This document shows, one piece after another, positions 13,854 to 38,756 of a DNA stretch of 64,000 nt (the first letter of the stretch is position 1; every line of letters begins with the position of its first letter). This stretch comes from Candidatus Falkowbacteria bacterium (GTDB lineage: Bacteria; Patescibacteriota; Patescibacteriia; XYB2-FULL-38-15). The stretch is taken from assembly GCA_016214745.1 (NCBI GenBank), contig JACRNW010000006.1, forward strand, positions 13,367-77,366. The letters are read 5' to 3'. Made by a program: the position numbers and the translations under genes. Under the pieces are notes generated by a model that did no database searches, was not told the origin of the DNA, and saw nothing but the letters and a program-made list of their open reading frames with translations.

Positions 13854-13917
13854 GGTTTTCCTTCGCTTGCCTTTGCCCGCGACACGCGGGGAATTTTGGC
13901 AAGACCTTTCTACCCGC

Positions 13918-14500: not shown

Positions 14501-14529
14501 TTGACAAATTTTTTAATTATGATAGAGTA
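14501..14529 (+). promoter_or_regulatory. sigma70-type promoter (TTGACA, 16-nt spacer, TGaTAGAGT extended -10) overlapped by the inverted repeat ttgtcaa-ccccc-ttgacaa
   Basis: Read directly from the sequence. No protein-coding ORF follows it. Confidence 0.4.
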
Positions 14530-14534
14530 TTACG

Positions 14535-14855: not shown

Positions 14856-14880
14856 TTATATCAAAATTTATATCAAAAAA

Positions 14881-21212: not shown

Positions 21213-22259
21213 ATGACGCATGCGGAGTTACAAAAATTCATAGCATTTTTGATGAAGCGCGGCTGGACAGTTTTTGCGCCGGAAAAACGGCCGGGAGAGG
21301 TTGTTTATGCCGAAGTGCAAGACGCCGCCAAAGTTAAGTTGATTTCCGAACCGCCGCTGCATTCATTTAAAAGATTTTTGGTTCCGCCCGAGGAAACGCT
21401 TTTTGAGTACGAAAAAGACAAACTGAACGAGGTTCGCGATGCGGGAATAAAAATTCCGAAGCAAGTGATTTTTGGCATTAATCCGGTTGATCTGAAAGCG
21501 ATTGTAATGTTAAATCAAATTTTTGAGCGAGATCCCTGGTATCAGGAACGGATGCGGCGGACGCTTATCATCGGCCAGAGTTTAATCCCGGCCGATGTTG
21601 AACATAATATTTTTCAAATTAAATACGAAGAAGACATTTTGGAACATCTGCAGTTTGATATTTTTTTGGAAGTGCAGCCCCTCACCCCTGCCCGCAACGC
21701 CAGCGCTAGCGTGGCAGGCGGGCCAACCCTCTCCCCAAAGGGGAGAGGGGCAGAGTATTTTGTCTACACCGGTTCGGAAGAAGGGCAAAGCAGTTTGGAA
21801 GATTTCGGTTATGAAGATTATGAGCACATCGCTTTCGCCGGACCGATCAGGGAAGAGGGTTTTGATCCCATGATGGTAAAATACCGCGACGCGCTCCGAA
21901 AAACTTACAAAAAAGAAATTTGGGAAAATGATATCGGCGCGCGTTGTATTGAGTGCGGCAAATGCACGCTTATTTGCCCGACCTGTTTTTGTTTTGATAT
22001 GAAAGATCAGCCGGATTTAGTGGGCGATGGCGGGGTGCGCAAGCGCGCTTGGAGCGCTTGTTTTTATAATGATTTTTCCGAAGTCGCCGGCGGGCATAAA
22101 TTTTTAAAAACTACGGCCGAGCGGATTCATTTTTGGTATTATCATAAATTTGTCCGAATTCCGGACCAGATTCAGATTATGGGTTGCGTCGGCTGTGGCC
22201 GGTGCGCCAAGGTCTGTCCGGTGAACATAAATATTTTTAAAGTTCTGGCGGCATTGTGA
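21213..22259 (+). CDS. hydB: [NiFe]-hydrogenase group 3b beta-like subunit (4Fe-4S; AsrA/HydB-like), carrying an in-frame GC-rich insert
   Basis: Two Cys clusters ([16 protein letters not shown]; [13 protein letters not shown]). The segment [26 protein letters not shown] is encoded by the G1-related GC-rich hairpin DNA at 21676-21752. Confidence 0.65.
21676..21752. repeat. In-frame GC-rich element inside hydB (a shortened G1 derivative plus the mini-hairpin ctccccaaaggggagagg)
   Basis: Shares cctgcccgcaacgccagc with G1 copies at 14925 and 33160. The local GC jump is visible in the sequence. Confidence 0.6.
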
Positions 22260-22272
22260 TTGCGATACGAAT

Positions 22273-22662
22273 ATGCCAATACATACGAATGATACGAATA
22301 AAATCATTTATAAAGAACTTTCTTATAAGATTAATGGTATTTTATTCAGGGCGCATAATGAGTTGGGTCGGTATTGTCGCGAAAGGCAGTACGCCGACAA
22401 ATTGGAAGAACTTTGGAAAGAAAATAAGATTAATTACAAAAGAGAAAAGAAAATGCTTGGCGATTTAGTGACAGGTAACATTCCCGATTTTTGTATAGAA
22501 GACAAGATATTGTTAGAAATTAAGGCAAAAAGTTTTATTGTCAAAGAAGATTATTATCAAATACAGCGGTATTTGCAGACAAATAAAATTAAGTTGGGGC
22601 TATTAGTCAATTTTAGAAATCGTTATCTCAAACCTATTCGTATCATTCGCATTAATTCGTAA
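22273..22662 (+). CDS. GxxExxY family protein (PD-(D/E)xK-like small protein)
   Basis: 129 aa matching the GxxExxY family pattern ([22 protein letters not shown]...[45 protein letters not shown]). Confidence 0.7.
22285..22650 (+). mobile_element. GxxExxY gene cassette bounded by 16-bp inverted repeats that overlap the gene's own first and last codons
   Basis: acgaatgatacgaata at 22285-22300 against tattcgtatcattcgc at 22635-22650 (15 of 16 complementary). It sits between hydB and the gamma subunit. A related cargo-less palindrome lies at 3708-3785. Confidence 0.4.
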
Positions 22663-22707
22663 ATTAGTATCGATTTTGGATTAGTCATCTATGGATAGCA
22701 GTTTTTT

Positions 22708-23520
22708 ATGCATAACCCATATCAAACCACGACTGTTAAAATTCTAAAAATTGAGGACGAGGGTTCGCGGTCTAAACTTTTTACACTTGAAGCGCCACGC
22801 GACTTTACGGTTCGGAGCGGCCAGTTTGTGGAAATTTCTCTGCCGGGATATGGCGAAGCGCCGATTTCTCTTTGTTCTGATCCGTCAGTCAAAAATAAAT
22901 TTGAGTTGTGCGTTCGAAAAGCCGGAATGGTGACGGGCGCCCTGCACGCCTTGAAAGTGGGCGATAAAGTCGGGGTGCGCGGGCCGTACGGCCGGCCGTT
23001 TCCCGCGGAAATTGGTAAACAAAGAAATTTGCTTTTGGTGGCCGGTGGTTTGGGTTTGGAACCGTTGCGTCCCGCGATTTGGGAAATCATGAAAAACCGC
23101 GAGCAGTATAAAAAAGTCCAAATTTTTTACGGTGCTTGCGACGAAAATGATTTGCTTTTTACAAAAGATTATGATGAGTTGAAGAAAAAAATTGATCTTC
23201 ATATAACATTAGACAAACCAAAAGGCCTTCAAACTCCGGTGGCTTGCGGCACGGGCGTGGTGACAACGCTTTTTGATCACGTTAAACTTTACGAAAATCC
23301 CGTAGCATTTTTGTGCGGCCCGCCCGTGATGTATAAATTTGTTATCAAAAAATTAAAAGAATTAGCTTTTTTGGACAGTGATATATATCTATCGCTTGAG
23401 CGGCGGATGCATTGCGGCGTCGGCGTCTGCAATCATTGCGCCGTCGGAAGTTTTTTTGTCTGCCAGGACGGTCCGGTTTTTTCCTGGGCCGAGTTGAAAG
23501 ATATAAAAGGAGCGATTTAA
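22708..23520 (+). CDS. hydG: [NiFe]-hydrogenase group 3b gamma-like subunit (FAD/NAD-binding oxidoreductase with a 2Fe-2S C-terminal region, PyrK-like)
   Basis: LVAGGLGLEPLRP (NAD-binding) and the C-terminal Cys cluster CGVGVCNHCAVG...C. Confidence 0.65.
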   Translation: MHNPYQTTTVKILKIEDEGSRSKLFTLEAPRDFTVRSGQFVEISLPGYGEAPISLCSDPSVKNKFELCVRKAGMVTGALHALKVGDKVGVRGPYGRPFPAEIGKQRNLLLVAGGLGLEPLRPAIWEIMKNREQYKKVQIFYGACDENDLLFTKDYDELKKKIDLHITLDKPKGLQTPVACGTGVVTTLFDHVKLYENPVAFLCGPPVMYKFVIKKLKELAFLDSDIYLSLERRMHCGVGVCNHCAVGSFFVCQDGPVFSWAELKDIKGAI

Positions 23521-23541
23521 TGTTTAAATAAAAAATTTGAT

Positions 23542-24813
23542 GTGTGCTTAACCATTCCCGGTAAAGTTATAGAAATTAAAGATCAAAATGCCTTACTCAA
23601 AACATCAAGTGGAGTAAGGCAAATTAATATTGGGCTCATATCACGCGTAAAAGTAGGTGATTGGCTTCTTGCTTCAATTGATTTAGCGGTCAAAAAAATA
23701 AAAGCGAAAGATGCGGAGGAAATTTTAGAATTACTCAGCGGAAAAAAAATAACAGATACAAATAACGTTAGTTTTAAATTTAGAGAAATTCTAAAAAATG
23801 CTCAAATTGGAGATTTAACAAAAGAAGAAATTATTTATTTACTTAAAACGGAAGGGCAAGAAAAGGAAGTATTATTTTCCGAGGCAGATGCGGTGTGTAA
23901 AGAAAATTTAAAAGATTTTATTTGCTTACATGCGATTGTTGAATTTTCAAATTATTGCGCAAATAATTGTTTTTATTGTGGGCTCCGGAGCGAGAATAAA
24001 ACTGTTGTCCGTTATAGAATGAGTATTTCGGAAATTGTTAAAGTCGCAAATGAAGCGGTCAACAAAATCGGCTATAAGATGATTGTGCTCCAGTCGGGCG
24101 CGGATATGCAATACACAGATGAAATGTTGGTTGAAATTATTAAAAAAATTAAAGCCAAAAGTCGGTGTTTTATTTTTATGAGTGTGGGGGAGCGAAGCGT
24201 TCAATGTTACAAAAAAATGAAAAAAGCGGGGGCGAATGGCGTTTTATTTAGATTTGAAACTTCAAATCCGAAACTTTATAATATTTTACATCCTAAAAAT
24301 ACTTTAAAGGGTGGGCTTCAAAATCGGTTGGCTCTTTTGCGAGAGATAAAAAAAATGGGATATTATATTTCATCAGGTCCGATTATAGGATTGCCCGGCC
24401 AGACTCTAGAAGATTTAGCAGATGATATTTTGATGATGAAAAAATTGAGCGTTGGCATGGCTTCAATGGGCCCGTTTATTCCGTGTGACGGGACACCCTT
24501 AGCGGGCGAGTCGCACGGCGATGTTGAACTTTCTTTAAAGACAATTGCTGCTTCTCGTCTTTTGATACCGAAGGCGCGCATTCCGGTAACAACAGCACTC
24601 GAAACACTTGATCCGCAAAACGCGCGTAAACGAGGATTGCAAAGTGGAGCCAATTCTTTAATGTTTAATTTGACTCCGGCGAAATATCGCAGTAAATACA
24701 AAATTTATCCAAATAAATTTCACGGGCGAGATAAAGATTTGGAAGATTTTGCCCTATACAAGGGAAAGGAGAGTTGGGAAATGCTCACAAGAGAATTTAA
24801 AAAATATATTTGA
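23542..24813 (+). CDS. HypC-like domain fused to a HydE-like radical SAM enzyme
   Basis: GTG start. Residues 1-70 read MCLTIPGKVIEIKDQNALLKTSSGVRQINIGLISRVKVGDWLLASIDLAVKKIKAKDAEEILELL (HypC/HupF signature MC.IP with Cys2). The radical-SAM core HAIVEFSNYCANNCFYCGLRSEN closely resembles HydE/BioB-family CxxxCxxC regions. Confidence 0.7.
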   Translation: MCLTIPGKVIEIKDQNALLKTSSGVRQINIGLISRVKVGDWLLASIDLAVKKIKAKDAEEILELLSGKKITDTNNVSFKFREILKNAQIGDLTKEEIIYLLKTEGQEKEVLFSEADAVCKENLKDFICLHAIVEFSNYCANNCFYCGLRSENKTVVRYRMSISEIVKVANEAVNKIGYKMIVLQSGADMQYTDEMLVEIIKKIKAKSRCFIFMSVGERSVQCYKKMKKAGANGVLFRFETSNPKLYNILHPKNTLKGGLQNRLALLREIKKMGYYISSGPIIGLPGQTLEDLADDILMMKKLSVGMASMGPFIPCDGTPLAGESHGDVELSLKTIAASRLLIPKARIPVTTALETLDPQNARKRGLQSGANSLMFNLTPAKYRSKYKIYPNKFHGRDKDLEDFALYKGKESWEMLTREFKKYI

Positions 24814-24815
24814 TT

Positions 24816-26189
24816 ATGGAAATAATTAATCAAGAAAAAATTTTTGATATTTTGGAAAAAACAAAAGACGCGAGCCAGAGCCGTTTTGAAGAAATAATTA
24901 ATAAAGCGAAAAAGATAAAAAGTTTAGATTTAGAAGAGGTGGGCATTTTGATAAATATTAGCGATGAAAAATTGATACAGAAAATGCAACAGGCGGCGCG
25001 CGAGATAAAAATGGCAATTTACGGGCCACGCCTGGTTTTGTTTGCCCCACTTTATGTTTCAAGTTTTTGTATCAACGACTGTGAGTATTGCGGTTTTCAT
25101 TGCCGGAATGCGACGCCGCGGAAAAAATTATCTTTGGATGAAGTGCGGCAGCAGGTGGAAATTTTGGAAGACATGGGGCACAAGAGATTGCTTTTGGAAT
25201 TTGGTGAAGATCCAAAAGAAAATCCGATTGATTATGTAACAGGTGTAATTAAAACAATTTATGCTACTAAAAAGGATCGCGGTTCAATTCGTAGAGTTAA
25301 TGTTAATATCGCCGCAACGAGCGTGGAAAATTATAAAAAATTAAAAGAAGCGGGGATCGGTACTTATCAACTTTTCCAAGAAACTTATCATCGGCCGACT
25401 TACGAAAAACTTCATTGCGGTCCAAAGGCGGATTACGATCGACAGATTACGGCCATGGATCACGCTTTTGCGGGAGGAATTGATGATTTGGGAATCGGTG
25501 TGCTGTTTGGTCTTTATGATTGGCGTTTTGAGGTTTTAAGTTTAGCGGCACACGCAGATTATATGGAGAAAACTTTTGGCGTCGGGCCGCACACTATTTC
25601 CGTCCCGCGCTTCCGTCCCGCGCCGACAGTTGATTTTAAATCAGAACACGAAGTCAGCGACAATGATTTTTTGAAACTTATCGCCATTTTACGTTTAGCA
25701 GTGCCATATACCGGAATGATTATGTCTACTCGCGAATCGCCGGAAATAAGGCGCCAGGCGTTTGAAATAGGAATTTCGCAAACGAGCGCGGGATCGCGTA
25801 CAACTCCCGGGGGATATAATGAAAAAAATAAAAAAGAAGAATTAGCTCAGTTCAATTTAAGTGATCACCGCACTTTAGATGAAATCGTCCGTGATATTTG
25901 TAAATTGGGATATTTACCGAGTTTTTGTACAGCCTGTTATCGAAGCGGCCGGACTGGCGATGACTTTATGAAGTATGCCAAAGCGGGAACGATACAAAAT
26001 TTTTGTCAACCAAACGCCATTTCAACTTTCAAGGAGTATCTTCTGGATTACGCAACGCCCGAAACGCGCGAGGTGGGGGAAGAAGTGATTAAAAGAGAAA
26101 TTAAAAAAATAAAAGACGCGCGGGTGCGTCAAAAGTTAGAAGAAAAACTCTCTCTGATAGAAAAAGGAAAACGCGATTTGTATTTTTAG
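24816..26189 (+). CDS. HydG/ThiH-family radical SAM tyrosine-lyase-like protein with a HydG-type C-terminal CX2CX22C motif
   Basis: N-terminal cluster FAPLYVSSFCINDCEYCGF. The C-terminal FCTACYRSGRTGDDFMKYAKAGTIQNFC has exactly 22 residues between the second and third Cys. Start placed at ATG 24816 (MEIINQ). Confidence 0.7.
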   Translation: MEIINQEKIFDILEKTKDASQSRFEEIINKAKKIKSLDLEEVGILINISDEKLIQKMQQAAREIKMAIYGPRLVLFAPLYVSSFCINDCEYCGFHCRNATPRKKLSLDEVRQQVEILEDMGHKRLLLEFGEDPKENPIDYVTGVIKTIYATKKDRGSIRRVNVNIAATSVENYKKLKEAGIGTYQLFQETYHRPTYEKLHCGPKADYDRQITAMDHAFAGGIDDLGIGVLFGLYDWRFEVLSLAAHADYMEKTFGVGPHTISVPRFRPAPTVDFKSEHEVSDNDFLKLIAILRLAVPYTGMIMSTRESPEIRRQAFEIGISQTSAGSRTTPGGYNEKNKKEELAQFNLSDHRTLDEIVRDICKLGYLPSFCTACYRSGRTGDDFMKYAKAGTIQNFCQPNAISTFKEYLLDYATPETREVGEEVIKREIKKIKDARVRQKLEEKLSLIEKGKRDLYF

Positions 26190-26265
26190 TAGGACTACAG
26201 AATCTAAATAGAGTGAGTTATTGGAAAATAAACGGAGGAAGCGGTACGACTTCCTCCGTAGTGGA

Positions 26266-26904
26266 TTAGCGAAAGATTTTGAGAATTTCGCCAAAATCTT
26301 TCGCTTCGTTGCCAAAATTCCGCCGAGCGTAACACTCAGCGATTTCGGGGCGTTCGATGAGTGTTGAGAGGGAATTTATTGGCACTTTGTGTTCTTCTGT
26401 TCCAACTGTTTTGGCGGCAAAAACAGCGGAATAACCTTTTGTGGAAGATGCCCGTTGTTTTACCCAAGTGAGAGCCCACCACTCGGCAACGGGAATGAAA
26501 CTTTTGTTTTCCTTCCGCAGTTTTCCGACTGTCTCGCCGGAAGAAATTACGTCGTCTATCACTACGACGGTTTTTATTCCGACCAAGACTCCAGGGTTAA
26601 TCCTGCCGACATAAGATCGGGGATTTTCTCCAGGAATCCAAACCCTTTTGGCGTGGGGAAATGCTTTCCATGGCCACTGCCAGAGCCAAAACGGGTCCAC
26701 TTTTTCAATGTACTTTTTGACAATCGACGCTCCGTTACCAGGCAGCACGATTAGTGTTGACCATGGATCAAGGTGTTCCCAGCCCTGCCACGCCAACAAA
26801 TTGCTTGTCATTTCTTGTGCGTCAAGAATTGTCAACCCGAATTTCCCGGCCAAAACTTCCTTGACACCGGCTTCTACACCAACATCAACGATCAAGTACC
26901 CCAT
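26266..26904 (-). CDS. phosphoribosyltransferase (type I PRTase)
   Basis: PRPP-binding motif VVVIDDVISSGETV. Start placed at MGYLIVD. Confidence 0.55.
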   Translation of the reverse strand: MGYLIVDVGVEAGVKEVLAGKFGLTILDAQEMTSNLLAWQGWEHLDPWSTLIVLPGNGASIVKKYIEKVDPFWLWQWPWKAFPHAKRVWIPGENPRSYVGRINPGVLVGIKTVVVIDDVISSGETVGKLRKENKSFIPVAEWWALTWVKQRASSTKGYSAVFAAKTVGTEEHKVPINSLSTLIERPEIAECYARRNFGNEAKDFGEILKIFR

Positions 26905-27075
26905 TTTCTTCCTCCTTTGTGCCTCTAGTTGGCAAAAGAAAAACCCCTTCTCTTTCAAGAAGGGGTTTATGGTCTTTGAGATCTTAGTAAATATATCAAA
27001 CACAACCAACCTCTTCTTGGAAGAGTCGATCGTGATGATGATTGGAAGTCGGAATTATGTCAGAGAATATTTTAT

Positions 27076-27612
27076 TCATACGGGGTTATTCAAAAGTTGC
27101 AAGGTTTTTTTAACTGCTTCTTCGGCGGTCTTAACGACATAGCAGGGAAAACTTTTGCGTCCTTTTAATTTTAAGCTACTCAAAATGTTTTCTCCGAAAC
27201 CTTTAATGAAAATTAATGGCTTTTTGTATCTATAAGCAATAGCCAGTTCAGCTAAAGTTCCTGCATCCCCGGGTAAAACAATAATTGCATCGCAACTTAA
27301 AATACCGGCAAAAAGAAAATCGCCAACATCAATTGGGGTACAGATTTCTATACTTACCCATGGATTTGACGAACCTCTTTCTCTCCCCGGAGTGCCTACA
27401 GTGATGCCACCAGCCTTATAAGCGGCTCGGCAAGCTGCTTCAACTACTCCGCTACAACCGCCGGTAATTAAAACAACATTATTTTTAGCCGCTGCCTTGC
27501 CTACTTTTCTGGCCACGTCTAACATCTTAATTCTCTCTTGCTTATTTTTTGGTAAATTAATTTCTTCGGGACCGATAATGCCAATTTGATATTTTTTTTG
27601 TGGTTTGTTCAT
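27076..27612 (-). CDS. Rossmann-fold nucleotide-binding protein, TIGR00725/LOG-like
   Basis: IGIIGPEE...VVLITGGCSGVVEAACRAA...PGDAGTLAELA pattern. Confidence 0.55.
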   Translation of the reverse strand: MNKPQKKYQIGIIGPEEINLPKNKQERIKMLDVARKVGKAAAKNNVVLITGGCSGVVEAACRAAYKAGGITVGTPGRERGSSNPWVSIEICTPIDVGDFLFAGILSCDAIIVLPGDAGTLAELAIAYRYKKPLIFIKGFGENILSSLKLKGRKSFPCYVVKTAEEAVKKTLQLLNNPV

Positions 27613-27825
27613 ATGTTTATTTTAAAATTAAAAATAAAAAACCTCTTGGAAAGAGGTGCAATTTCGTTGATTTAAATAAAATTTATTACCACGACAAGAC
27701 CTCTTTCCTAAGAAATGAAAGAGACGTGATGATGATAAATTTTATTTATATCTTTTTTCATGATTTTAATATACATGATATTAAATATTTTGTCAAATTT
27801 TTAGAGTAAATAGTTTTTGACAATC

Positions 27826-28728
27826 TCAGACAATACTCTTTTTTAGGACCGGCGCAGCGGAGATGATTTTTATTTTGGGAATTTGTTTTGCTTTTAGCAT
27901 GGGATAAGTGTCGGTTATCAAGACTTCCTTAATGGGTGATTTTTTTATTCTCGCGATGGCCGGGCCGGAGAGAACGCCGTGAGCGGCGGCGGCATAGATG
28001 GCGCGGGCGCCGGCACGGTGAAGTGCTTCGGCCGCGCCCGCGAGCGTCCCGGCCGTATCGATCAGGTCGTCAACCAAAACAATGTTTTTATTTTTAACGT
28101 CCGCGCCTTTTGGCAGTGAAATGCGAGCCACATTCGGCCGCGGTCTGTATTTTTTGCAATAGCCGACCGGACCAGCCAAGTTTTTCTTGCCATAAATTTT
28201 CGCGAATTGTTCGGCCCGATGAATCCCGCCTTGGTCTGGAGAAAAAATTAATAAATTATTAAGACACATTTTTTTAAAGTACTCTGCTAACGCCGGATAG
28301 GCACTTAAATGGACAAGCGGCTTGGTAAAAAATTTTTCGTTTTGTCCGCTGTGAAGATTAAAAGTTAAAATTTTGTCCGCACCGGCTGCGGCCAGCAAAT
28401 CAGCCATTAATTTTGCCGTAAGCGGCGCGTTCGGTTGGTCAATCCAATCCTGTCTGGCGTAGCCAAAATAGGGGATAATGACATTTATTTTTTTGGCGGC
28501 GGCGGTTTTTAAAGCATTAATTAAAATGAGTAACTTCAAAAGATTATCCGACGGCGGCATGGTGGAACCAATAACCCACGTCGCCTTGCTGCGAACTTTT
28601 TCTTTTGGCCGGACATAAAGTTCGCCATCGGAGAAATTTTTTATTTCTAAATGGCCGAGTTTGAGGCGGGCGTGGCGTACAAGTGCCTTAGTCAAATCGG
28701 GGTTAGTGTTTGTGGAGAAGAGAAGCAT
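27826..28728 (-). CDS. prs: ribose-phosphate pyrophosphokinase
   Basis: Prs N-terminus (MLLFSTNTNPDLTKALVRHARLKLGHLEIKNFSDGELYV) and the PRPP loop VLVDDLIDTAGTL. Start placed at ATG 28728. Confidence 0.8.
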   Translation of the reverse strand: MLLFSTNTNPDLTKALVRHARLKLGHLEIKNFSDGELYVRPKEKVRSKATWVIGSTMPPSDNLLKLLILINALKTAAAKKINVIIPYFGYARQDWIDQPNAPLTAKLMADLLAAAGADKILTFNLHSGQNEKFFTKPLVHLSAYPALAEYFKKMCLNNLLIFSPDQGGIHRAEQFAKIYGKKNLAGPVGYCKKYRPRPNVARISLPKGADVKNKNIVLVDDLIDTAGTLAGAAEALHRAGARAIYAAAAHGVLSGPAIARIKKSPIKEVLITDTYPMLKAKQIPKIKIISAAPVLKKSIV

Positions 28729-28740
28729 AAAAATTACAAA

Positions 28741-28885
28741 TCTAAAATTACAAATCCTAAATAAATTCAAAACTCAAATATCCAAATTCAAAACTTTTTG
28801 GATTTAGATATTTGATATTATTTGGAATTTGGTGCTTTGAATTTGGAATTTTAAAATTTTGCATTTTGATTTTTGATGTTTGATT
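28741..28885. repeat. AT-rich simple hairpin repeat cluster (family P4)
   Basis: caaatatccaaattcaaaac / tttgaatttggaattt inverted low-complexity units. Confidence 0.5.
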
Positions 28886-29544
28886 TATTCTTTGCCGAAT
28901 TTTTCCGATTGTTGAAGTAGGGAGACGACTTCCTCATCCATCGTCTGTCCAAACTCTTCATAAAATGCGCCGACGGCGCCGAAAAAGGCGGGGGCATCCA
29001 AATAGATCAATTCGTCGACTTCTTTTTTAATCAACTTCGCCGTGTCGGGCGGCGTGACGGGAATTGCCACAATAATTTTCGCCGCGCCGTAAAGTTTTAC
29101 CGTTTTAATCGCCGCGCGCATGGTGAGGCCGGTGGCTAAACCGTCGTCAACAATGACGACATTTTTATTTTTCAAATCGAGCGGCGGGCGCGTGCCGCGA
29201 TAGAGTTTTCGCCGCCGCTCCGCCTCAATTTTTTCTTTGGCAATTTCGTTGTCTAAATAACTCTGATTAATTCCGTAGGCGGCAATAGTTTGTTCATCAA
29301 AAATTCCCTCGCCGGTCTCGGTGATGGCTCCGATCGCAAACTCGGGATTTCCCGGTGCGCCGATTTTTCGAGGAACCACAATGTCCAGCGGCAGGTTTAG
29401 CGCCTCCGCCACTTTAAAACCGATGACCACTCCGCCGCGCGGCAGGGCCAGAATTATTGTGTTTGGGGCATTTTTGTATTTTTGCAGGACTTGGGCCAGT
29501 TTTTGTCCGGCGTCGAGACGGTCTTTGAATGTCATATTAATCAA
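28885..29544 (-). CDS. phosphoribosyltransferase (type I PRTase)
   Basis: 219 aa with VVIVDDGLATGLTM. Confidence 0.6.
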   Translation of the reverse strand: MINMTFKDRLDAGQKLAQVLQKYKNAPNTIILALPRGGVVIGFKVAEALNLPLDIVVPRKIGAPGNPEFAIGAITETGEGIFDEQTIAAYGINQSYLDNEIAKEKIEAERRRKLYRGTRPPLDLKNKNVVIVDDGLATGLTMRAAIKTVKLYGAAKIIVAIPVTPPDTAKLIKKEVDELIYLDAPAFFGAVGAFYEEFGQTMDEEVVSLLQQSEKFGKE

Positions 29545-29665
29545 TTATACCGTTTTTCATGGTTTTTAAAAAGTGGTATAATGTGATAAGGAATCGGGAA
29601 TCGGGAATTAAGGTTATTGCATTATTAAATTTTCCGTAATTCCTAATTCATAATTTATTTACAAT

Positions 29666-30499
29666 ATGCCAGCCAAACCATCCTTTAACGTAAAATTATT
29701 TTTAGAGGAGTTTGTGATTTTTGGTCTTGTTCAGGCCTTAAGCATTTGGGCCGGCCTTTACTTTTTCTCTCACGCCGACTTGGCCGAGATAAAAATTACC
29801 ACTTCTCTCTGGCAGTTTGTCATTGCTTTTGCCATTGCCACGGTTTTGATGATTATCGCCTTGCGGCTCGTGAAGGGAAGTTTATTTTTTAAGACGCTGT
29901 TTTTTTTGGTGAATTTTTTGGGAGCGGGAATAATTTTCGGCATTTTTTTGCCGATGCCCGTGGCCGCCGTTTTGGCGTTTGTTTGGGTTGCCCTCCGGTT
30001 TTTTGTGCCGCGCATTTGGTTGCATAATTTGACAATTATTTTGGGATTGGGAGGCGTTGCCGCGGTTTTCGGCTTGTCGCTGTCCATTGCCGCGGTTTTG
30101 GTTATTTTGTTTGTTCTCTCAATTTATGATTACATCGCCGTTTATAAAACAGAACACATGGTGGAAATGTTTCGGGAGTTGGTGCATCGGGGAGTGATTT
30201 TCGCGGCAATCTTGCCGCTTAAATTTAAAGGTTGGACGGCCGATCTGGCCGAGATTCGGCCGGGCGGTGATTTTATCTTTTTCGGAACGGGCGACTTGAT
30301 CTTACCCTCGATTCTTGCCGTTTCGGCTATTTCGTACGGTCTGGAGAGCGTGGCTTTTTCGGTGGGCGGATCATTTGTCGGGCTCGTAGTTTTGCACATT
30401 TTGTTTACCAGTCAGCGAAAGCGAGCTCCCATGCCGGCTCTGCCGCCGCTCGTATTGTTTTCCGCATTGGGTTTTGTCATTTCATTGTTGATAAAATAA
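29666..30499 (+). CDS. presenilin/signal-peptide-peptidase-like intramembrane aspartyl protease homolog (A22 family)
   Basis: Polytopic. YD motif (LSIYDYIAVY), GxGD motif (FFGTGDLILP) and a PAL motif (MPALPP) occur in the expected order. Confidence 0.55.
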   Translation: MPAKPSFNVKLFLEEFVIFGLVQALSIWAGLYFFSHADLAEIKITTSLWQFVIAFAIATVLMIIALRLVKGSLFFKTLFFLVNFLGAGIIFGIFLPMPVAAVLAFVWVALRFFVPRIWLHNLTIILGLGGVAAVFGLSLSIAAVLVILFVLSIYDYIAVYKTEHMVEMFRELVHRGVIFAAILPLKFKGWTADLAEIRPGGDFIFFGTGDLILPSILAVSAISYGLESVAFSVGGSFVGLVVLHILFTSQRKRAPMPALPPLVLFSALGFVISLLIK

Positions 30500-30513
30500 T
30501 CCGCAAATACGGT

Positions 30514-31020
30514 ATGAAGGTTTTAATGGTTATTGCGCAAAAAGATTTTCGCGACGAGGAGTTTTTTGAGCCGCGTGAAGTTTTTATTAAAAATGGTACG
30601 GAAGTGAAAGTCGCGAGCCAAAAGTTAACGGAAGCCCGCGGCCGATTGGGAGGCACAACCATACCTGACGTGACGATTGGCGAGGCGGAAGCTCAAGATT
30701 TTGCCGCCGTAATTTTTGTCGGTGGGCCGGGCGCGGCGGTTTATCTTAATGATTCGGCGGCGCATAAGTTAGCCAGAGATTTTTATGCCGCCGGTAAAAT
30801 TGTGGCCGCGATTTGTCTTGGTCCGTCCATTTTGGCCAATGCGGGATTGCTTCGCGGAGTGAGAGCGACTTGCACTCCGAGCGAGCAAGAAAATTTGAAG
30901 ATGAGGGGAGCGGAGTATACCGGAGCGCCGGTCGAAGTGGACGGGAAAATAGTGACGGCCTGCGGGCCCGAAGCGTCGAGGGAGTTTGGGAAGAAAATAG
31001 TCGAACTGCTAAAACAATAA
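30514..31020 (+). CDS. DJ-1/PfpI family protein
   Basis: 168 aa with the nucleophile-elbow Cys (AAICLGPSILANAG). Confidence 0.8.
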   Translation: MKVLMVIAQKDFRDEEFFEPREVFIKNGTEVKVASQKLTEARGRLGGTTIPDVTIGEAEAQDFAAVIFVGGPGAAVYLNDSAAHKLARDFYAAGKIVAAICLGPSILANAGLLRGVRATCTPSEQENLKMRGAEYTGAPVEVDGKIVTACGPEASREFGKKIVELLKQ

Positions 31021-31095
31021 ATCAAAACCAATATCCAATATCAAATATCAAATATCTTTTGGCGGATATTGGCTATTCGCTATTAGATATTAGAA
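31021..31095. repeat. AT-rich simple hairpin repeat (atatcaaatatc units)
   Basis: ccaatatccaatatcaaatatcaaatatc...gatattggctattcgctattagatatt inverted. Confidence 0.45.
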
Positions 31096-31108
31096 TAATT
31101 GTAAACGA

Positions 31109-31867
31109 ATGAATAAACCCACACTCGCTATTGCCAGTATGACTTGTTGCGAGGGTTGTCAGGTGGAGATTTTAAATTTAGGAAAACGACTTCTGGATCT
31201 TTTCCAAGTTTTTGATTTGGGAAATTTTTCCTGGGCCGAGGAAAAAAAGGAGAGGCCGAAATACGACGTGGCGGTGATCGAGGGAACTCCGCTCACGCAT
31301 GAGGATGTAAGATATTTGAAAGAATTGCGGAGAAAATCAAAAATTTTGGTTGCCATCGGAAGCTGTGCGCATTTGGGCGGAGTTCAGGAAATAAAAAATT
31401 ACGCCGAGAAAAATAAAAATGAAAAAGTAAAATACGTTTACCCAAAATATCAGCGGATACAAAATCCAACGGTCGTGCCGCTTTGGAAAGTGGTAAAAGT
31501 TGATTATACCGTGCCGTGCTGTCCGATTGATAAAGATGAATTTTTCCGGGTGATTTCCGATATTGCTTTTGGCCGCGCGCCAAAAATTCCTTTACGTCCA
31601 GTTTGCTTTGAATGCCAGACGAGCGGATACGAGTGTCTTTTGCAAAAAGGTCAGCCGTGTATGGGGCCAATTACGATCGGCGGCTGTAAAGCGATTTGTC
31701 TTCGGAGTAAAAGATTTTGTTATGGCTGCCGCGGGCCGCTTCCCGGAGCCGGGCCGCAGATTAAAAAACACTTGCGAAATATTGAAAAATTAGTTGGGAA
31801 AAAATATCTTCGCGAAATTATGGAAACCTACGGCGCGGAAGATGATTTTTTGCGAATTGAGAAATAA
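31109..31867 (+). CDS. hydD: [NiFe]-hydrogenase small (delta-like) subunit
   Basis: TCCEGC (proximal cluster), GSCAHLGG and the distal Cys motifs. Confidence 0.7.
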   Translation: MNKPTLAIASMTCCEGCQVEILNLGKRLLDLFQVFDLGNFSWAEEKKERPKYDVAVIEGTPLTHEDVRYLKELRRKSKILVAIGSCAHLGGVQEIKNYAEKNKNEKVKYVYPKYQRIQNPTVVPLWKVVKVDYTVPCCPIDKDEFFRVISDIAFGRAPKIPLRPVCFECQTSGYECLLQKGQPCMGPITIGGCKAICLRSKRFCYGCRGPLPGAGPQIKKHLRNIEKLVGKKYLREIMETYGAEDDFLRIEK

Positions 31868-31890
31868 GATATTTTGTTTGATATTTCAAC

Positions 31891-31970
31891 CGGAATCCCG
31901 ACGAAAGTCGGAAAATTGCCCAGCTTTCGCTGGGAGTCCAGAAAAAACGGAATCCCGACGAAAGTCGGGT
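31891..31970. repeat. GC-rich double-hairpin unit G2, 1.5 copies
   Basis: ggaatcccgacgaaagtcgg...gcccagctttcgctgggagtccagaaaaaacggaatcccgacgaaagtcggg. Compare 7044-7097. Confidence 0.7.
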
Positions 31971-32027
31971 TTTTGATTTCTCCCCTTAAGGTAAGGGGAG
32001 ATTAAGAGGGGTGAAATGGGGTTGACA

Positions 32028-32056
32028 AACTTGCTAAAATGTGTTATTCTAAATTG
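32028..32056 (+). promoter_or_regulatory. sigma70-type promoter (gTTGACAaac-17-TATTCT) preceding a hairpin-dense roughly 300-nt leader of islet gene D
   Basis: Read from the sequence. The leader at 32060-32360 contains at least 6 GC-rich hairpins (ctccccgaaggggagag, ctccctttaaaaaagggagag, cccccctttatcaagggggga and others). Confidence 0.35.
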
Positions 32057-32365
32057 TTAGTAAATAGTTCTTTTAAAGGTAAAACCCCCTCACTCCAACT
32101 CTCTCCCCGAAGGGGAGAGAGAGTTTCCTCGCCCCACTGGGGAGAGGACTAAGGTGAGGGGGCAACAAGTTCCCAGTTTTCTTTTGGCGGTTTTAAATCC
32201 CTCTCTAACTCTCCCTTTAAAAAAGGGAGAGAAATTCCCCCCTTTATCAAGGGGGGATTAAGGGGGATTTGCGAAGACCCCCAAAAGAAGGCTGGGAATT
32301 TCTCTCGGCCAGAGACAGCAACGTAGTCGCCGCGGGCGACCAGTTGCGAAGAAGGAGAACGAGTC

Positions 32366-32869
32366 ATGAGCGACGAGTTCAGGATGACGACGGGACAGGC
32401 GCATGAGTTGGCGATGGCCTTCGGTCGCAACGGCTGGACCAACGCCGACGTGAAGAAGATGTCTGAGGGCGATCTGCTCGCCCGACTGCTACCGGTCATC
32501 CGGGGGCAGGCCGACGTGAAGAAGCCGGAAATCCCGACCGAGATGACCGTCGGCGGCCGCGTCTACGAGATCCTCTCCTTCCTCCGGGAGGAGGACAACG
32601 GATTCGTCCGCGGCGACGTGATGGTCTCCCGGGCGAAGGAGCTCGGCGCCAACCTCGGCAAGGAGGACTGCGAGTTCCTCCTCACCCACCAGGACGAGAT
32701 TCCGCCCGCGTTGCGGGGCAAAGTCGTCTTCGTCTTCCCGGACTTGCGGCGCCCGGGCGACCGCGAGCACGTCGCGTACCTCCACTGGGACGACGGCGGC
32801 TGGTACCGGCACTGGTACTGGCTCTCGGACGACTGGGACGGCTACGATCGTCTCCTTCGCCGCAAGTAG
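32366..32869 (+). CDS. GC-rich islet protein D (hypothetical, W/D-rich C-terminus)
   Basis: SD gaaggag before the ATG. 167 aa with high GC3. Shares a weak DCEF/FEEF-L-x-T motif with islet proteins A and C. Confidence 0.45.
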   Translation: MSDEFRMTTGQAHELAMAFGRNGWTNADVKKMSEGDLLARLLPVIRGQADVKKPEIPTEMTVGGRVYEILSFLREEDNGFVRGDVMVSRAKELGANLGKEDCEFLLTHQDEIPPALRGKVVFVFPDLRRPGDREHVAYLHWDDGGWYRHWYWLSDDWDGYDRLLRRK

Positions 32870-33018
32870 TGTCCTTGGACCCTGGGTAACTCGGCCCTTC
32901 AAACCGGCCTGGTCGCTCGGACCCTCGGACACTTTGTCCCTTGGCCCCACTTCAAATCCAATGCTTCACAAAGCAAAGGAAATGAAGCGGGGCCGTTTTT
33001 TTATTTAAGATTTTAGAT

Positions 33019-33207
33019 TTTCTCCCCTTAAGGTAAGGGGAGACTAAGAGGAGTTATGAACGGTGGATTTTAGTGCTACGGTTCATAACGCCCCCGCCCG
33101 CCACGCAAGCCAGCCCCGCCTGCAACGCTATGCTTGCATTAGCGGGCAGGTTGCTGGCGTTGCGGGCAGGCCCAGCCCCTCTTATCTTAAGAGGGGAGCG
33201 TTATACT
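33019..33207. repeat. GC-rich composite element G1, copy Y (inverted relative to copy X)
   Basis: The reverse complement of 33070-33200 matches 14908-15040 almost base for base. Confidence 0.8.
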
Positions 33208-33265
33208 GATTTTTTTATTTATCTTTTTATGATATAATGAATAAAATTAGTGAAGAGAATAAATT

Positions 33266-34558
33266 ATGAAAATAAAAATAAGCCACCTCGCCAAAATTGA
33301 AGGGCATGCCAGTTTTTTTGCCGATATGCTCGCCGGCGATATCAAAAACGCCAAATTGAAAATTACGATTGGCGCGCGTTTGATTGAATCAATAATTTTA
33401 AACCGCAATTATATTGAAACGCCGATTGTGACCTCGCGCATTTGTGGCATATGTTCGGTGGCGCACAATATCACAAGCATTAAAGCGATTGAAAACGCAT
33501 TAAAAATAAAAATAAATCCTCAAATTGAACGGCTCCGAAAAGTTTTGGTTTTGGCCGAGCCGATCCAAAGCCACGCGGCGCATCTTTTCTTTTTATCTTT
33601 ATCCGATTTTTTCAAATATGAAAGCGACATTGATTTGATGAAAAAATATCCCGACCTCGCCAAAAAAATTATTTTGATTCGCGATTTTGGAAATAAAATT
33701 AAAGATGTGGTCGGCGGAAGAGATATGCACATGATCGTGACGGAAATCGGCGGGTTTAGAAGAGTGCTTGATGATAAAATAATTCAAAAATTAATTGATG
33801 AAACTGAAGGCGTGCTAGAAGCCGCGATTGGCGTGGCGAAATTTTTTCGGGCGCTTGATTATCCGAAATATGAACGGAAAGTGGAATTTGCGGGACTCAC
33901 CGCGCCGCGCGAGTATGCTTTTTATGACGGCGTAATTGGATCAACTATGGAGTCGGCACGTCCCGTGAAAAAATTCTATAAAGAACTTGTGGAAAAGCAA
34001 ACTGCGGACGATCCGACCAAGCGCGCGCGGCACGAGGGCAAAAGTTTTATGGTCGGCGCGATTGCGCGGTTAAATTTGAGCCACAAATTTTTAAATCCCG
34101 AAGCGAAAAAGTTTTTGACTTTTTTTGACAAATCCCTCTCCAACTCTCCCTTTGGAAAAGGGAGAGGGTCTGTTCTCACGTTTAACACTTTTCACAATAT
34201 TTACGCCCAGTCTGTGGAGCTCGTTCATTGCGTTGAAGAGGCGCAAAAACTGCTCAAAGAATATTTGCGCGATAAATCAAGAAATTTGATGGTAAAATAT
34301 ACTTTAAAAAACGGCGAAGGACTTGGAGCGACCGAGGCGCCGCGCGGCACGCTTTATCATTATTATAAAATTGATAAATATGGTGTGATTCGCGCTTGTA
34401 ATATTATTACTCCGACGGCGCAATTTTTGGATAATTTGGAAAATGATTTGGAAAAATATTTGAATGAGGCAAAAATCAAAGATGAGAAGGATAGAAAATG
34501 GAAAATAAATATGATGGTGCGCGCGTACGATCCTTGTATGACATGTGCTACACACTAA
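33266..34558 (+). CDS. hydA: [NiFe]-hydrogenase large subunit (group 3-like, about 430 aa), ending exactly at the C-terminal His
   Basis: N-terminal RICGICSVAH (L1 motif) and C-terminal DPCMTCATH followed by stop, so there is no cleavable extension. An in-frame hairpin insert lies at 34133-34170. Confidence 0.8.
   Translation: MKIKISHLAKIEGHASFFADMLAGDIKNAKLKITIGARLIESIILNRNYIETPIVTSRICGICSVAHNITSIKAIENALKIKINPQIERLRKVLVLAEPIQSHAAHLFFLSLSDFFKYESDIDLMKKYPDLAKKIILIRDFGNKIKDVVGGRDMHMIVTEIGGFRRVLDDKIIQKLIDETEGVLEAAIGVAKFFRALDYPKYERKVEFAGLTAPREYAFYDGVIGSTMESARPVKKFYKELVEKQTADDPTKRARHEGKSFMVGAIARLNLSHKFLNPEAKKFLTFFDKSLSNSPFGKGRGSVLTFNTFHNIYAQSVELVHCVEEAQKLLKEYLRDKSRNLMVKYTLKNGEGLGATEAPRGTLYHYYKIDKYGVIRACNIITPTAQFLDNLENDLEKYLNEAKIKDEKDRKWKINMMVRAYDPCMTCATH
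34133..34170. repeat. In-frame GC mini-hairpin element inside the hydrogenase large subunit
   Basis: tccctctccaactctccctttggaaaagggagagggtc encodes SLSNSPFGKGRGS. It is near-identical to the intergenic copy at 32208-32231 (tccctctctaactctccctttaaaaaagggagag). Confidence 0.6.
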
Positions 34559-34655
34559 AGTTAAAAGTTAAAAATTAAAAGTGCAAAGTTACAGTTTAAA
34601 GTTTAAAGGTTTTTTCAATAACTTTTAACTTTTCACTTTACACTTCTAACTTGTT

Positions 34656-34913
34656 ATGCATGACCTTCACGAAGCAGACAGAATTTTAAAATTAGTTTTG
34701 GATCACGCCGAGCGCCATAAGTTGAAGTCGGTGACAAAAGTCGTTATCGGACTTGGCAGCGTGATTGAGCATGGTTCGGAAATAAATCCGGAAAATTTAA
34801 AATTTAATATTGGCGTGCTGGCGCGTCAAACTATGGCGGAAAACGCGGAAGTGGTGGTTAAAAAAATAAAAGCCGATACTTGGGAACTTGAAGAAATAGA
34901 GGGGGATAAATAA
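34656..34913 (+). CDS. hypA: HypA-like N-terminal domain protein (nickel-insertion factor) lacking the C-terminal zinc finger
   Basis: MHDLHEADRILKLVLDHAERHKLKSVTKVVIGLGSVIEHGSEINPENLKFNIG matches the HypA N-domain pattern (MHE-type N-terminus). 85 aa with no Cys; the ORF stops immediately before P1 copy 3. Confidence 0.5.
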   Translation: MHDLHEADRILKLVLDHAERHKLKSVTKVVIGLGSVIEHGSEINPENLKFNIGVLARQTMAENAEVVVKKIKADTWELEEIEGDK

Positions 34914-34917: not shown

Positions 34918-35026
34918 CTACAAATTACGAATTCGGTACAAATGTACAAATTTTTTCTAACACGTTAATTTAAAAAAACGTAATTTGTCGTTATTTGTAT
35001 ATTTGTAAATAATTTGTAATTTGTAG
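34918..35026. repeat. Palindromic intergenic element family P1, copy 3 (inverted relative to copies 2 and 4)
   Basis: ctacaaattacgaattcggtacaaatgtacaaattttttctaacacgttaatt...ttatttgtatatttgtaaataatttgtaatttgtag. Confidence 0.8.
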
Positions 35027-37193: not shown

Positions 37194-38756
37194 ATGGCTA
37201 AAAATCATAAAAAACCGACAGTTCTCATCATCTTGGACGGTTGGGGCGTTGCGCCGCCGGGGCCGGGTAATGCCATTACTTTAGCTAAAACGCCAACTAT
37301 GTCCGCGCTTTGGAATGAATTTCCTCATACTTTGCTTTCCGCGCACGGCCGAGCCGTTGGTTTGCCGGGAGATCAGGAAGGAAATTCCGAGGCGGGCCAC
37401 ATGAATTTGTCAGCCGGATGGATTGTTAAGCAAGATGCCGTTTATATAAATGAGGGCATTAAAGATGGAACGTTTTTTAAAAACACGGCTTTTCTTGAAG
37501 CCCTGGAGCACTTAAAAAAATATAATTCAAAAGTTCACCTGATGGGTCTGCTTTCAAACGGCGAGAGCGCTCATTCCTTTCCCGACCATCTTTACGCCGT
37601 GCTGGATCTCCTGCATAAACACGAAGTAAATAAAATTTTTTTGCATTTATTTACTGATGGCAGAGACTCTTCCCGTTTTGCCGCGATTAAATTATTGCCG
37701 AAATTAAAAACCCATTTTCATAATGATGAAAAAATAGCGACTATTATGGGGCGGTTCTACGCCATGGATCGCATAAAAAAATGGTCAAGAATTGAAGCGG
37801 CTTACAACGCGATGACCATGGGCCATGGAGCGGCGGCCGAATCCGCCGAAGCAGCAATTTCTTCCGCTTACAATCGCGGTGAAACAGATGAATTTATTAT
37901 GCCGACCGTGATTGTTAATGACCACAAGCCATTAGCGACGATTGATGATAATGATGTGATAATTTTTTTCAATTTGCGATCTGACCGGGCTAGAGAAATT
38001 ACCAAGACATTTGTGCAAGAAGATTTCACGGAAAAAAATCCAGGTTCGTTTAAAAGAAAAAAAATTGCTAAAAATATCAGGTTCGTGGCCTTGACTGATT
38101 TCGGCCCGGATTTGCCGCACATTTTAACCGCTTATCCTTCCCGTGAAATTTTCTCCGCTCTGCCGGCGGTTTTTCGCGATAAAAAACAAATTTATATCGC
38201 CGAGGCGGAAAAATACGCCCACGTTACGTATTTTTTTAACGGAGGCAACGCTGACCCGCTTTACGGAGAAGAAAGAGTGAGAATTCCATCGCCGTCGGTG
38301 GCGCACTACGAAGAAAAGCCGGAAATGAGTGCGGAAAAAGTTACCGCAGAAGTTAGGCGCTGCATTGACGGCGGGCAATATGATTTTATTGCCGTCAATT
38401 TTTGTAATCCCGATATGATTGGTCATACGGGAGATTTGTCGGCTGGAATTAAAGCAGTAGAAGCGGTTGACGCATGTATCGGGAAAATTGTTAGAGGAGT
38501 ATTTAGGATGGATGGAACGGCGATCGTGACGGCTGATCATGGAAATATTGAGGAAATGATAAATGAAAAAAGCGGAGAAATTGACACTGAACATTCAATA
38601 AATCCGGTGCCGCTCATTATTATCGGACCGCGGTTTAAAAATTTAAAACGGAAAAAATTGCGAGGGGGAGTGCTCGCCGATGTGGCTCCGACCATTCTTG
38701 ATGTGATGGGAATCACGACACCGAGGGAAATGACGAGAAAAAGCCTACTTTCATAA
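37194..38756 (+). CDS. gpmI: 2,3-bisphosphoglycerate-independent phosphoglycerate mutase (paralog 1)
   Basis: ILDGWGVAP and the catalytic-Ser region NSEAGHMNL, with C-terminal metal-binding motifs. Confidence 0.85.
   Translation: MAKNHKKPTVLIILDGWGVAPPGPGNAITLAKTPTMSALWNEFPHTLLSAHGRAVGLPGDQEGNSEAGHMNLSAGWIVKQDAVYINEGIKDGTFFKNTAFLEALEHLKKYNSKVHLMGLLSNGESAHSFPDHLYAVLDLLHKHEVNKIFLHLFTDGRDSSRFAAIKLLPKLKTHFHNDEKIATIMGRFYAMDRIKKWSRIEAAYNAMTMGHGAAAESAEAAISSAYNRGETDEFIMPTVIVNDHKPLATIDDNDVIIFFNLRSDRAREITKTFVQEDFTEKNPGSFKRKKIAKNIRFVALTDFGPDLPHILTAYPSREIFSALPAVFRDKKQIYIAEAEKYAHVTYFFNGGNADPLYGEERVRIPSPSVAHYEEKPEMSAEKVTAEVRRCIDGGQYDFIAVNFCNPDMIGHTGDLSAGIKAVEAVDACIGKIVRGVFRMDGTAIVTADHGNIEEMINEKSGEIDTEHSINPVPLIIIGPRFKNLKRKKLRGGVLADVAPTILDVMGITTPREMTRKSLLS

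Follow-up and report, generated by a model that had tools for sequence, protein, structure and literature searches.

Hydrogenases acquire their metal centres through dedicated maturation pathways, and those of the [NiFe] and the [FeFe] enzymes have so far been treated as unrelated. In canonical [NiFe] maturation, as in Escherichia coli and Thermococcus kodakarensis, HypA to HypF act together with an endopeptidase; the anoxic source of the CO ligand in these enzymes is a long-standing open question. The known [FeFe] pathway consists of HydE, HydG and HydF, which is required. HydG builds an Fe(CO)2(CN)-cysteine synthon from tyrosine, and HydE uses this synthon as its substrate. Here we describe a hydrogenase locus at positions 21213-34913 of a 64,000-nucleotide (nt) stretch of DNA from a Candidatus (Ca.) Falkowbacteria bacterium (the window; positions 13,367 to 77,366 of contig JACRNW010000006.1, assembly GCA_016214745.1). 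Its maturation set, namely HypC::HydE, HydG, a zinc-less HypA and no protease, is a conserved and essentially uncharacterised multi-phylum variant that joins parts of both hydrogenase maturation systems. Such a set points to a shortened and so far undescribed route to the metal centre of the enzyme.

Group-3b-like hydrogenases are documented in the Candidate Phyla Radiation (CPR), for which Jaffe et al. 2020 (PMC7304191) defined the clades hyd1 and hyd2. The Falkowbacteria locus resembles these in clade and in layout. In the portions of that paper used here, the beta and gamma genes are sometimes "not immediately upstream" of the small subunit, and homology to HypC is noted for fam002, one of the neighbouring families. 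The difference lies in the maturases, since the hydrogenase section, in those same portions, names neither HydE nor HydG. The terms 'maturation', 'maturase', 'hypA' and 'radical SAM' do not occur in its main text, and thus the meaning of the fusion, the short HypA and the absent C-terminal extension are not discussed in that part of the paper.

A second likeness is found in Ca. Centrionella anaeramoebae (bioRxiv 10.64898/2026.04.11.717937). Its reduced genome carries an "unusual HydE-HypC fusion" in a [NiFe] operon with FAD/FeS and ferredoxin-type subunits, and this operon differs in encoding also HybD, HypA and HypB. The preprint gives the fusion one sentence, with no mechanism and no discussion of HydG. 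This sentence, and the HypC homology of fam002 in the portions of PMC7304191 used here, are the only mentions related to the fusion that we found. No paper on [NiFe] maturation based on HydE and HydG came up in our literature search, which had most subscription journals outside its reach, so that an earlier description is possible.

The core genes of the locus, with coordinates in the window, are the following.

21213-22259, plus strand: beta subunit, AsrA/ShyB-like, with a 4Fe-4S dicluster (Pfam Fer4_22, 7.5e-32; NCBIfam ShyB, 3.8e-37)
22708-23520, plus strand: gamma subunit, AsrB/ShyC-like, FAD/NAD(P)-binding, with a [2Fe-2S] site (NF006220, 248 bits; ShyC, 222 bits; Pfam NAD_binding_1, DHODB_Fe-S_bind and FAD_binding_6)
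23542-24813, plus strand: HypC::HydE fusion with a GTG start (PF01455, 63 bits, cutoff 28.5, and PF04055; TIGR03956 HydE, 281 bits, cutoff 255)
24810-26189, plus strand: HydG, a radical S-adenosylmethionine (SAM) tyrosine lyase (TIGR03955, 600 bits, cutoff 312; PDB 4WCX, 587 bits, full length)
31109-31867, plus strand: delta (small) subunit (PF01058, 4e-24; ShyD, 1.3e-52)
33266-34558, plus strand: alpha (large, catalytic) subunit (ShyA, 255 bits; PF00374; PDB 9E1J and 5YXY, about 1e-50; all four Ni-Fe cysteines present)
34656-34913, plus strand: HypA, Ni-binding domain only, MHD N-terminus, 85 amino acids (aa) (PF01155, 37.5 bits, cutoff 28.9, profile positions 1-71 of 112)

The positions of the open reading frames (ORFs) for beta, gamma, delta, alpha and hypA, and the presence of a GxxExxY cassette, had been given in an original prediction, made by a model from the letters of the stretch, and all of them hold. 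Its assignment to a group-3b-like enzyme is supported by profile and structure matches. The best NCBIfam models of the four subunits are all of the Shy type (ShyA 255 bits, ShyB 128, ShyC 222 and ShyD 179), with AsrA and AsrB secondary. In a PDB search, the top structural matches of alpha are group-3b enzymes, sulfhydrogenase I (SHI) of Pyrococcus furiosus (9E1J, 6e-51) and HyhL of T. kodakarensis (5YXY). The next large subunits, 7T2R and Mvh (5ODC, which we take to be group 3c), are found at 1e-43 or weaker, and other group 3 enzymes follow. The motifs of alpha are EGH (residue 12), RICGIC (residue 58) and DPCMTCATH (residues 422-430).

The archetypes of group 3b, P. furiosus sulfhydrogenase I/II and T. 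kodakarensis Hyh, share with this locus the four subunit types (alpha, delta, AsrA-like beta and AsrB-like gamma) and identical Ni-Fe cysteine motifs, and they give the strongest matches among curated models and solved structures. On the other hand, all four subunit scores are below the NCBIfam equivalog cutoffs, that of alpha by far (255 vs 700 bits), and the Falkowbacteria subunit genes are interrupted by maturase genes. Judged by its structural genes alone, the locus is an unremarkable representative of the hyd1 clade of CPR hydrogenases. It is best read as one functional unit encoding a [NiFe]-hydrogenase of group-3b type that is cytoplasmic, NAD(P)-linked and part of the "hyd1" clade of Jaffe et al. 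2020.

In terms of sequence, both maturases belong to the radical-SAM enzymes of [FeFe] type, and one is fused to a [NiFe] chaperone, a point absent from the original prediction. The fusion has a HypC domain at residues 1-65, with Cys2, and a HydE radical-SAM part at about residues 81-401, with CX3CX2C at residue 139. Its PDB matches are HydE of Thermotoga maritima (5.6e-73) and, for residues 1-64, HypC of T. kodakarensis (2Z1C). The AlphaFold2 model has a mean predicted local distance difference test (pLDDT) of 91 and a predicted template modelling score (pTM) of 0.90; as this pTM is for the whole protein, the fusion is predicted to be a single rigid two-domain unit. With Foldseek, the modelled HydE part can be superposed on structures of T. 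maritima HydE (TM-score 0.85-0.91), some of which have the HydG product bound. Next, the hydG gene overlaps the stop codon of the fusion gene by 4 nt, and its product has CX3CX2C at residue 87 and the C-terminal CX2CX22C of the auxiliary cluster at residue 373. Across 106 fusions, Cys2, Leu3 and Pro6 are invariant, with Met1 and Thr4 conserved in at least 90%.

HydG and HydE are genuine members of the families that mature the [FeFe] H-cluster, as judged from their sequence, motifs and predicted fold. The setting is different: no HydF scaffold or [FeFe] HydA is nearby, the partners are [NiFe] structural genes and Hyp genes, and HydE carries a HypC domain where HydF would act as carrier. With canonical [NiFe] maturation the locus has in common a HypC-type chaperone with an N-terminal Cys and a HypA with the MH(E/D) nickel site. 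In contrast to it, HypC is fused to a radical-SAM enzyme and has no equivalent of His51, the zinc domain of HypA is missing, and no HypB, HypD, HypE, HypF or protease is found in the window or in the flanks of the CPR loci.

The original prediction described a hydrogenase split into two halves by 7.6 kb of unrelated genes. The size of the gap is right, with 7,588 bp between the end of gamma and the start of delta, but its first ~2.65 kb are HypC::HydE and HydG, and only ~4.9 kb are a lineage-specific insertion. This is seen when the locus order is compared with relatives, where the maturase pair is conserved between gamma and delta. The nearest compact Falkowbacteria locus (L006, 57-73% protein identity) has the order beta-gamma-fusion-HydG-DJ-1-delta-alpha-HypA-pgk. 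Another CPR locus (L001) reads beta-gamma-HypC::HydE-HydG-DUF6390-delta-GNAT-alpha-x-HypA(85 aa)-pgk. Because the pair sits between gamma and delta in both of these compact loci, HypC::HydE and HydG (hereafter, the module) are, judging from gene order, part of the operon. The best reading of the ancestral order is beta-gamma-[HypC::HydE]-HydG-(DJ-1)-delta-alpha-HypA. We also considered the maturases as a chance insertion, and this is ruled out by synteny in the compact relatives and across phyla.

As for HypA, the protein has zero cysteines, lacks the zinc domain with its two CxxC pairs and scores below the NCBIfam equivalog cutoffs. Alignment with HypA of E. coli and Planctomycetota places the change inside the protein: a zinc-finger segment of ~33 residues is deleted and the last beta-strand (WELEEIEGDK) is kept. 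The alignment also has a conserved four-residue insertion, xEHG. Cysteine-poor short HypA proteins of 84-95 aa are present in ten linked loci. Furthermore, in a search of 5.8 billion proteins we found 77 clusters of short HypA, with 53-99 aa and nearly all with 82-99 aa (the 53-aa one is a fragment), and every cluster with a source name belongs to Patescibacteria.

The stop codon of hypA is at the equivalent position in orthologues, and downstream of the gene no CxxC motif is encoded in any frame. Together with the 77-cluster family, this rules out an assembly truncation. The original prediction had named such a truncation as something to exclude, and what we find is an internal deletion in a conserved family. 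By its own account, a zinc finger recoverable by a one-base correction would have refuted it; none is recoverable, and therefore the zinc-less HypA is real. Its description of a HypA with an MHx N-terminus, no Cys and no zinc finger agrees with the 85-aa protein and its MHD start. The stop just before a repeat is equally correct, as an inverted repeat begins at 34918, five bases past it.

The large subunit is also short. The TAA stop codon of alpha comes directly after the His of DPCMTCATH, as predicted originally along with the lack of a hycI/hyaD-like gene. Neither tblastn with E. coli HycI nor Pfam scans revealed such a gene in the 64-kb window; the scans covered most ORFs with 110 aa or more, leaving aside shadow ORFs and a few more. 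Large subunits of this clade typically lack a C-terminal extension, and in 32 of the 44 that are linked to the fusion the His of DPCxxCxxH is the last residue. Extensions of 7-14 residues are seen in "hyd2"-type enzymes and in loci L025 and L034, the latter two with a HycI-like protease. Archaeal 3b precursors have 4 residues beyond the His (428-aa chains aligned to residue 424), whereas the Falkowbacteria alpha has none.

Large subunits that end at or near the last ligand motif, with no dedicated protease, are known from Ech/CooH (group 4) and from the HupUV/HoxBC sensors (group 2b). The difference is that here a large subunit of this kind is found in a 3b-like clade and in module-linked, sensor-like enzymes of Planctomycetota. 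Both the zinc-less HypA and the extension-less alpha are conserved, and they fit a streamlined pathway.

We then looked at the distribution of the fusion, for which gene content, domain identities, catalytic motifs and synteny across phyla can be read directly. Among the best 120 matches, at least 119 protein clusters have both domains, at 51-88% identity. In 185,579 species-representative genomes there are 130 relatives. Most hosts are CPR, and the others are Ca. Kuenenia, Brocadiaceae, Ca. Wunengus, other Planctomycetota, Ca. Methylomirabilis and metagenome-assembled genomes (MAGs) of Desulfobacterota/Syntrophales. When the N-terminal 125 aa were searched against 1.84 billion representative proteins, a handful of 50%-identity representatives and a triple fusion came up. 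In this last case, from a Falkowbacteria MAG (L081 10001-12646, protein P0201), HypC, HydE and HydG form a single polypeptide of 881 aa.

The gene neighbourhood was analysed in 83 non-redundant fusion loci with up to 10 kb either side, 1.35 Mb of flanks altogether, using tblastn with the window proteins and the E. coli Hyp proteins and an unbiased clustering of 1,424 ORFs. The gene immediately after the fusion is hydG in 51 of 77 loci, and 47 of the 83 loci (20 of the 34 with full flanks) have a [NiFe] large subunit within 10 kb; for a random gene in a 1-Mb genome, simple reckoning gives a chance expectation of roughly 2%. HydG is also found in 38 of these 47 alpha-bearing loci. The commonest neighbour families are alpha, delta, gamma and beta, followed by a response regulator, DJ-1, stand-alone HypC, short HypA, pgk and HypB. 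Seen from the other side, the pair HypC::HydE and HydG is the most conserved neighbour of fusion-linked hydrogenases.

Three types of [NiFe] enzyme are found beside the module. The first are the 3b-like enzymes of CPR. The second, sensor-like type occurs in Planctomycetota/anammox bacteria in the order HypC::HydE-HydG-HypA (with zinc finger)-HypB-small-large, with a hybrid histidine kinase and response regulators; its large subunit has 484 aa and ends at CTVH-stop. The third is a Deltaproteobacterial NiFeSe enzyme exported by the twin-arginine translocation (Tat) system, with cytochrome b, protease, HypA and HypB. One locus of Ca. Kuenenia hertensis (L041 11375-19293) has a complete type I restriction-modification system (HsdM, HsdS, HsdR and DUF559) between the fusion and hypA-hypB, and no HydG was seen in it.

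In terms of missing partners, HypD, HypE and HypF have zero matches in the 83 loci and their 1.35 Mb of flanks, by tblastn with the E. coli proteins and by a motif scan. HydF and [FeFe] HydA are likewise absent from these flanks, beyond isolated chance motif matches. The Pfam scans of the 64-kb window, which took in most ORFs with 110 aa or more, gave none of these five, only housekeeping genes.

A second, stand-alone HypC of 65-120 aa, several with His-rich tails, was observed in loci L019, L040, L049, L058, L062, L064, L065, L067, L076, L078 and L082. In these 11 loci it lies mostly directly upstream of the fusion gene.

In the route that we propose, HydG would cleave tyrosine, with its C-terminal cluster as the site where an Fe(CO)x(CN) synthon is formed. 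The HydE domain would take this synthon, as T. maritima HydE does, and process it. It would then pass an Fe-CO/CN unit not to HydF but to Cys2 in the HypC domain of the same polypeptide. The HypC domain would load the unit into the apo large subunit, bypassing the carbamoyl-phosphate route of HypD, HypE and HypF, after which the Ni-domain-only HypA would add nickel. No proteolytic step would follow, because the large subunit already ends at His. From the loci we infer the chemistry, the transfer to HypC and that HypDEF can be dispensed with. That the module matures the [NiFe] enzyme in this way, with HydG and HydE making the Fe-CO/CN unit and the fused HypC delivering it, seems to us rather probable. 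We are more tentative about a full replacement of HypDEF by the module. Just as tentatively we suggest a third, hybrid route, in which the Fe-CO/CN unit of [NiFe] enzymes comes from HydG via HydE fused to HypC, with no HypDEF, and which would be standard in hydrogenase-bearing CPR and found also in anammox Planctomycetota, Methylomirabilis and Desulfobacterota.

Several points weigh against this proposal. The HydG product is Fe(CO)2(CN) and the [NiFe] site is Fe(CO)(CN)2, a mismatch in ligands that the route leaves unexplained. The fused HypC domains do not keep the His of E. coli H51, which in canonical HypC is implicated in binding Fe jointly with HypD. They have Ser, Thr, Ile, Ala or Phe at this position, and the stand-alone HypC copies beside the fusion retain the canonical His. 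HydG is missing nearby in 9 of the 47 hydrogenase-linked loci. In 14 of the loci with full flanks, no hydrogenase accompanies the fusion within 10 kb, and 12 of them lack HydG as well. The absence of HypD/E/F, HydF and HydA is one of 10 kb flanks, not of whole genomes. As the subunit scores are below the equivalog cutoffs, the enzyme is 3b-like and not a close 3b orthologue. Lastly, the route is drawn from sequence and predicted structure.

Some of these points would be explained if the module supplements the canonical pathway, with HydG and HypC::HydE giving one ligand, most plausibly the anoxic CO, and HypDEF encoded elsewhere giving the cyanides. Such a division would resolve the mismatch between the HydG product and the [NiFe] site. 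It would also suit the stand-alone HypC, with its canonical His, mostly directly upstream of the fusion in 11 loci, and the non-CPR hosts (Desulfobacterota and Planctomycetota), which have large genomes and may carry hypCDEF elsewhere. However, HypD/E/F are never within 10 kb in the 83 loci, though HypA and HypB are, and CPR genomes are of ~1 Mb or smaller and heavily streamlined. In the 1,249-gene genome described in the preprint 10.64898/2026.04.11.717937, the "full maturation machinery" of the operon is HybD, HypA, HypB and the fusion, and HypDEF are unnamed there. We consider a purely supplementary role unlikely.

Another explanation is that the target of HydE and HydG is an [FeFe]-hydrogenase encoded outside the locus, and that their presence in a [NiFe] operon reflects only the co-regulation of hydrogen metabolism. 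Both proteins do pass curated [FeFe]-maturase models, and HydG matches the genuine [FeFe] maturase 4WCX over its full length with 587 bits. However, HydE is covalently fused to the [NiFe]-specific chaperone HypC, whose Cys2 is invariant, the synteny with [NiFe] structural genes and HypA/HypB extends across several phyla, and the flanks have no HydF or HydA motif other than chance matches. This makes an [FeFe] target very improbable.

If the module matures the [NiFe] enzyme by the hybrid route, tyrosine would be the source of the diatomic ligands at such [NiFe] sites, and the ratio of CO to CN there may depart from the textbook one. With HydG and HydE tied in one operon to HypC, HypA and a [NiFe] enzyme, and HypDEF apparently absent, the locus offers a few-gene system for this tyrosine-derived route. 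It would account for a working hydrogenase being maintained with few accessory genes in ultra-small CPR genomes, and it may serve as a compact maturation kit for heterologous hydrogenase production. Automatic annotations of the module genes as "[FeFe] maturase" or "biotin synthase" would be corrected accordingly.

The remainder of the gap between HydG and delta contains the following features.

26266-29544, minus strand: lineage-specific insertion, opposite in strand to the hydrogenase genes (Pfam)
26266-27009, minus strand: phosphoribosyltransferase (PRT)-like ORF, with a PRPP (phosphoribosyl pyrophosphate)-loop-like motif only and no Pfam match
27076-27612, minus strand: SLOG/LOG-like gene (Pfam)
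27826-28770, minus strand: prs (Pfam)
28885-29544, minus strand: phosphoribosyltransferase (PRTase) (Pfam)
29666-30499, plus strand: presenilin / signal-peptide-peptidase-like membrane protein, part of the insertion (PF06550, 4.6e-21), present in L007 and not in L006
30514-31020, plus strand: DJ-1/PfpI gene, between HydG and delta (PF01965, 4e-40)

The ~4.9 kb with the PRTases, prs, SLOG and presenilin-like genes are a lineage-specific insertion after HydG, common to two sister Falkowbacteria. Genes for prs and PRTase are at the equivalent place after HydG in L007 and L008, and the block is missing from the compact L006 and L001. L007 additionally shares with the window the presenilin-like gene and a GC-rich ORF between delta and alpha. 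Two PRTases had been proposed originally; this is correct for the second (28885-29544), but the first (26266-27009) has only the PRPP-loop-like motif, with no Pfam match.

The DJ-1/PfpI gene had been counted as unrelated filler, which does not fit its distribution. Its cluster recurs between HydG and the small-subunit gene in 11 loci, including the compact L006 (12717-13229), and it is probably a member of the locus. A role in clearing reactive by-products of HydG (p-cresol or glyoxylate-type compounds) is conceivable, as speculation. In L001, the place between HydG and the small subunit is taken by a DUF6390 protein (12781-13455), which has a weak HypC-like segment (Pfam E-value 2.8e-4).

Finally, the locus contains cassettes, repeats and GC-rich DNA.

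22263-22672, plus strand: cassette with a GxxExxY / PD-(D/E)XK ORF at 22273-22662 (PF13366, 1.4e-18; TIGR04256, 1.1e-16)
31868-33265, no strand: delta-alpha spacer with hairpin repeats and a GC-rich ORF (repeat families D4, D5, D9 and I13)
32366-32869, plus strand: 167-aa ORF with 66% G+C (window 43%), of no Pfam or NCBIfam family, flanked by direct repeats TCTCCCCTTAAGGTAAGGGGAGA
34918-35026, no strand: inverted repeat I2 between hypA and pgk, with 34-nt arms of TACAAAT/ATTTGTA units, 85% complementary (the "P1 repeat" of the original prediction)

The GxxExxY cassette between beta and gamma, correctly recognised before, has its ORF flanked by 38-nt inverted repeats (I1, 82% complementary). 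It is not present in L006 and L001, and looks like a selfish cassette. The arms of I2 loosely resemble those of this cassette, and I2 might be an empty cassette site or a terminator. Small selfish-looking ORFs fill gaps between hydrogenase genes in many CPR loci (L010, L053, L060, L061, L074, L081 and L083). Their types are GxxExxY / PD-(D/E)XK, the four-helix bundle of the 23S-rRNA intervening protein (IVP), GIY-YIG and a small methyltransferase.

The hairpin repeats are G+C-rich, of the form CTCTCCCC-loop-GGGGAGAG, and lie at 21723-21747, 34130-34166, 32083-32146, 32195-32231, 31979-32001 and 33021-33043. Compared with the L006 orthologues, copies are inserted in frame in variable loops of beta (~20 aa, repeat 21723-21747) and alpha (7 aa). 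A similar in-frame insertion was observed in the fusion protein of a relative (P0015). The GC-rich ORF at 32366-32869 looks like foreign or mobile DNA, and L007 has a 191-aa homologue at the equivalent position between delta and alpha. It falls in "GC islet 2" (~32280-33180, 61% G+C), which the original prediction had placed between the beta/gamma and delta/alpha halves and which is actually between delta and alpha.

The insertion, the cassettes and the repeats are lineage-level noise. A decaying locus, in which an operon broken by the 4.9-kb insertion, the GC-rich foreign ORF and selfish cassettes, with hairpin repeats inside the beta and alpha coding sequences and a truncated HypA, would be an inactive relic with no working maturation, is hardly credible, given that all ORFs are intact with their metal-binding motifs, the repeats are in frame and in variable loops, the layout is preserved in sister genomes at 60-73% protein identity and the short HypA is a conserved family.

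In the rest of the window, G+C is also raised (52-57%) at 13001-15000 and 49001-50000, where no RNA family was found with Rfam. No structured RNAs were found in the GC islets, the only Rfam match being an L10 leader at 61105. In a scan of the window, promoter-like sites are not above the shuffled expectation, and terminator-like sites are modestly enriched (41 vs 24.5 expected, standard deviation 5.2), which fits the hairpin repeats; neither defined transcription units. Lastly, pgk is followed by tandem genes for 2,3-bisphosphoglycerate-independent phosphoglycerate mutase (37194-38756 and 38776-40350), a duplication that is also present in L006 and L083.

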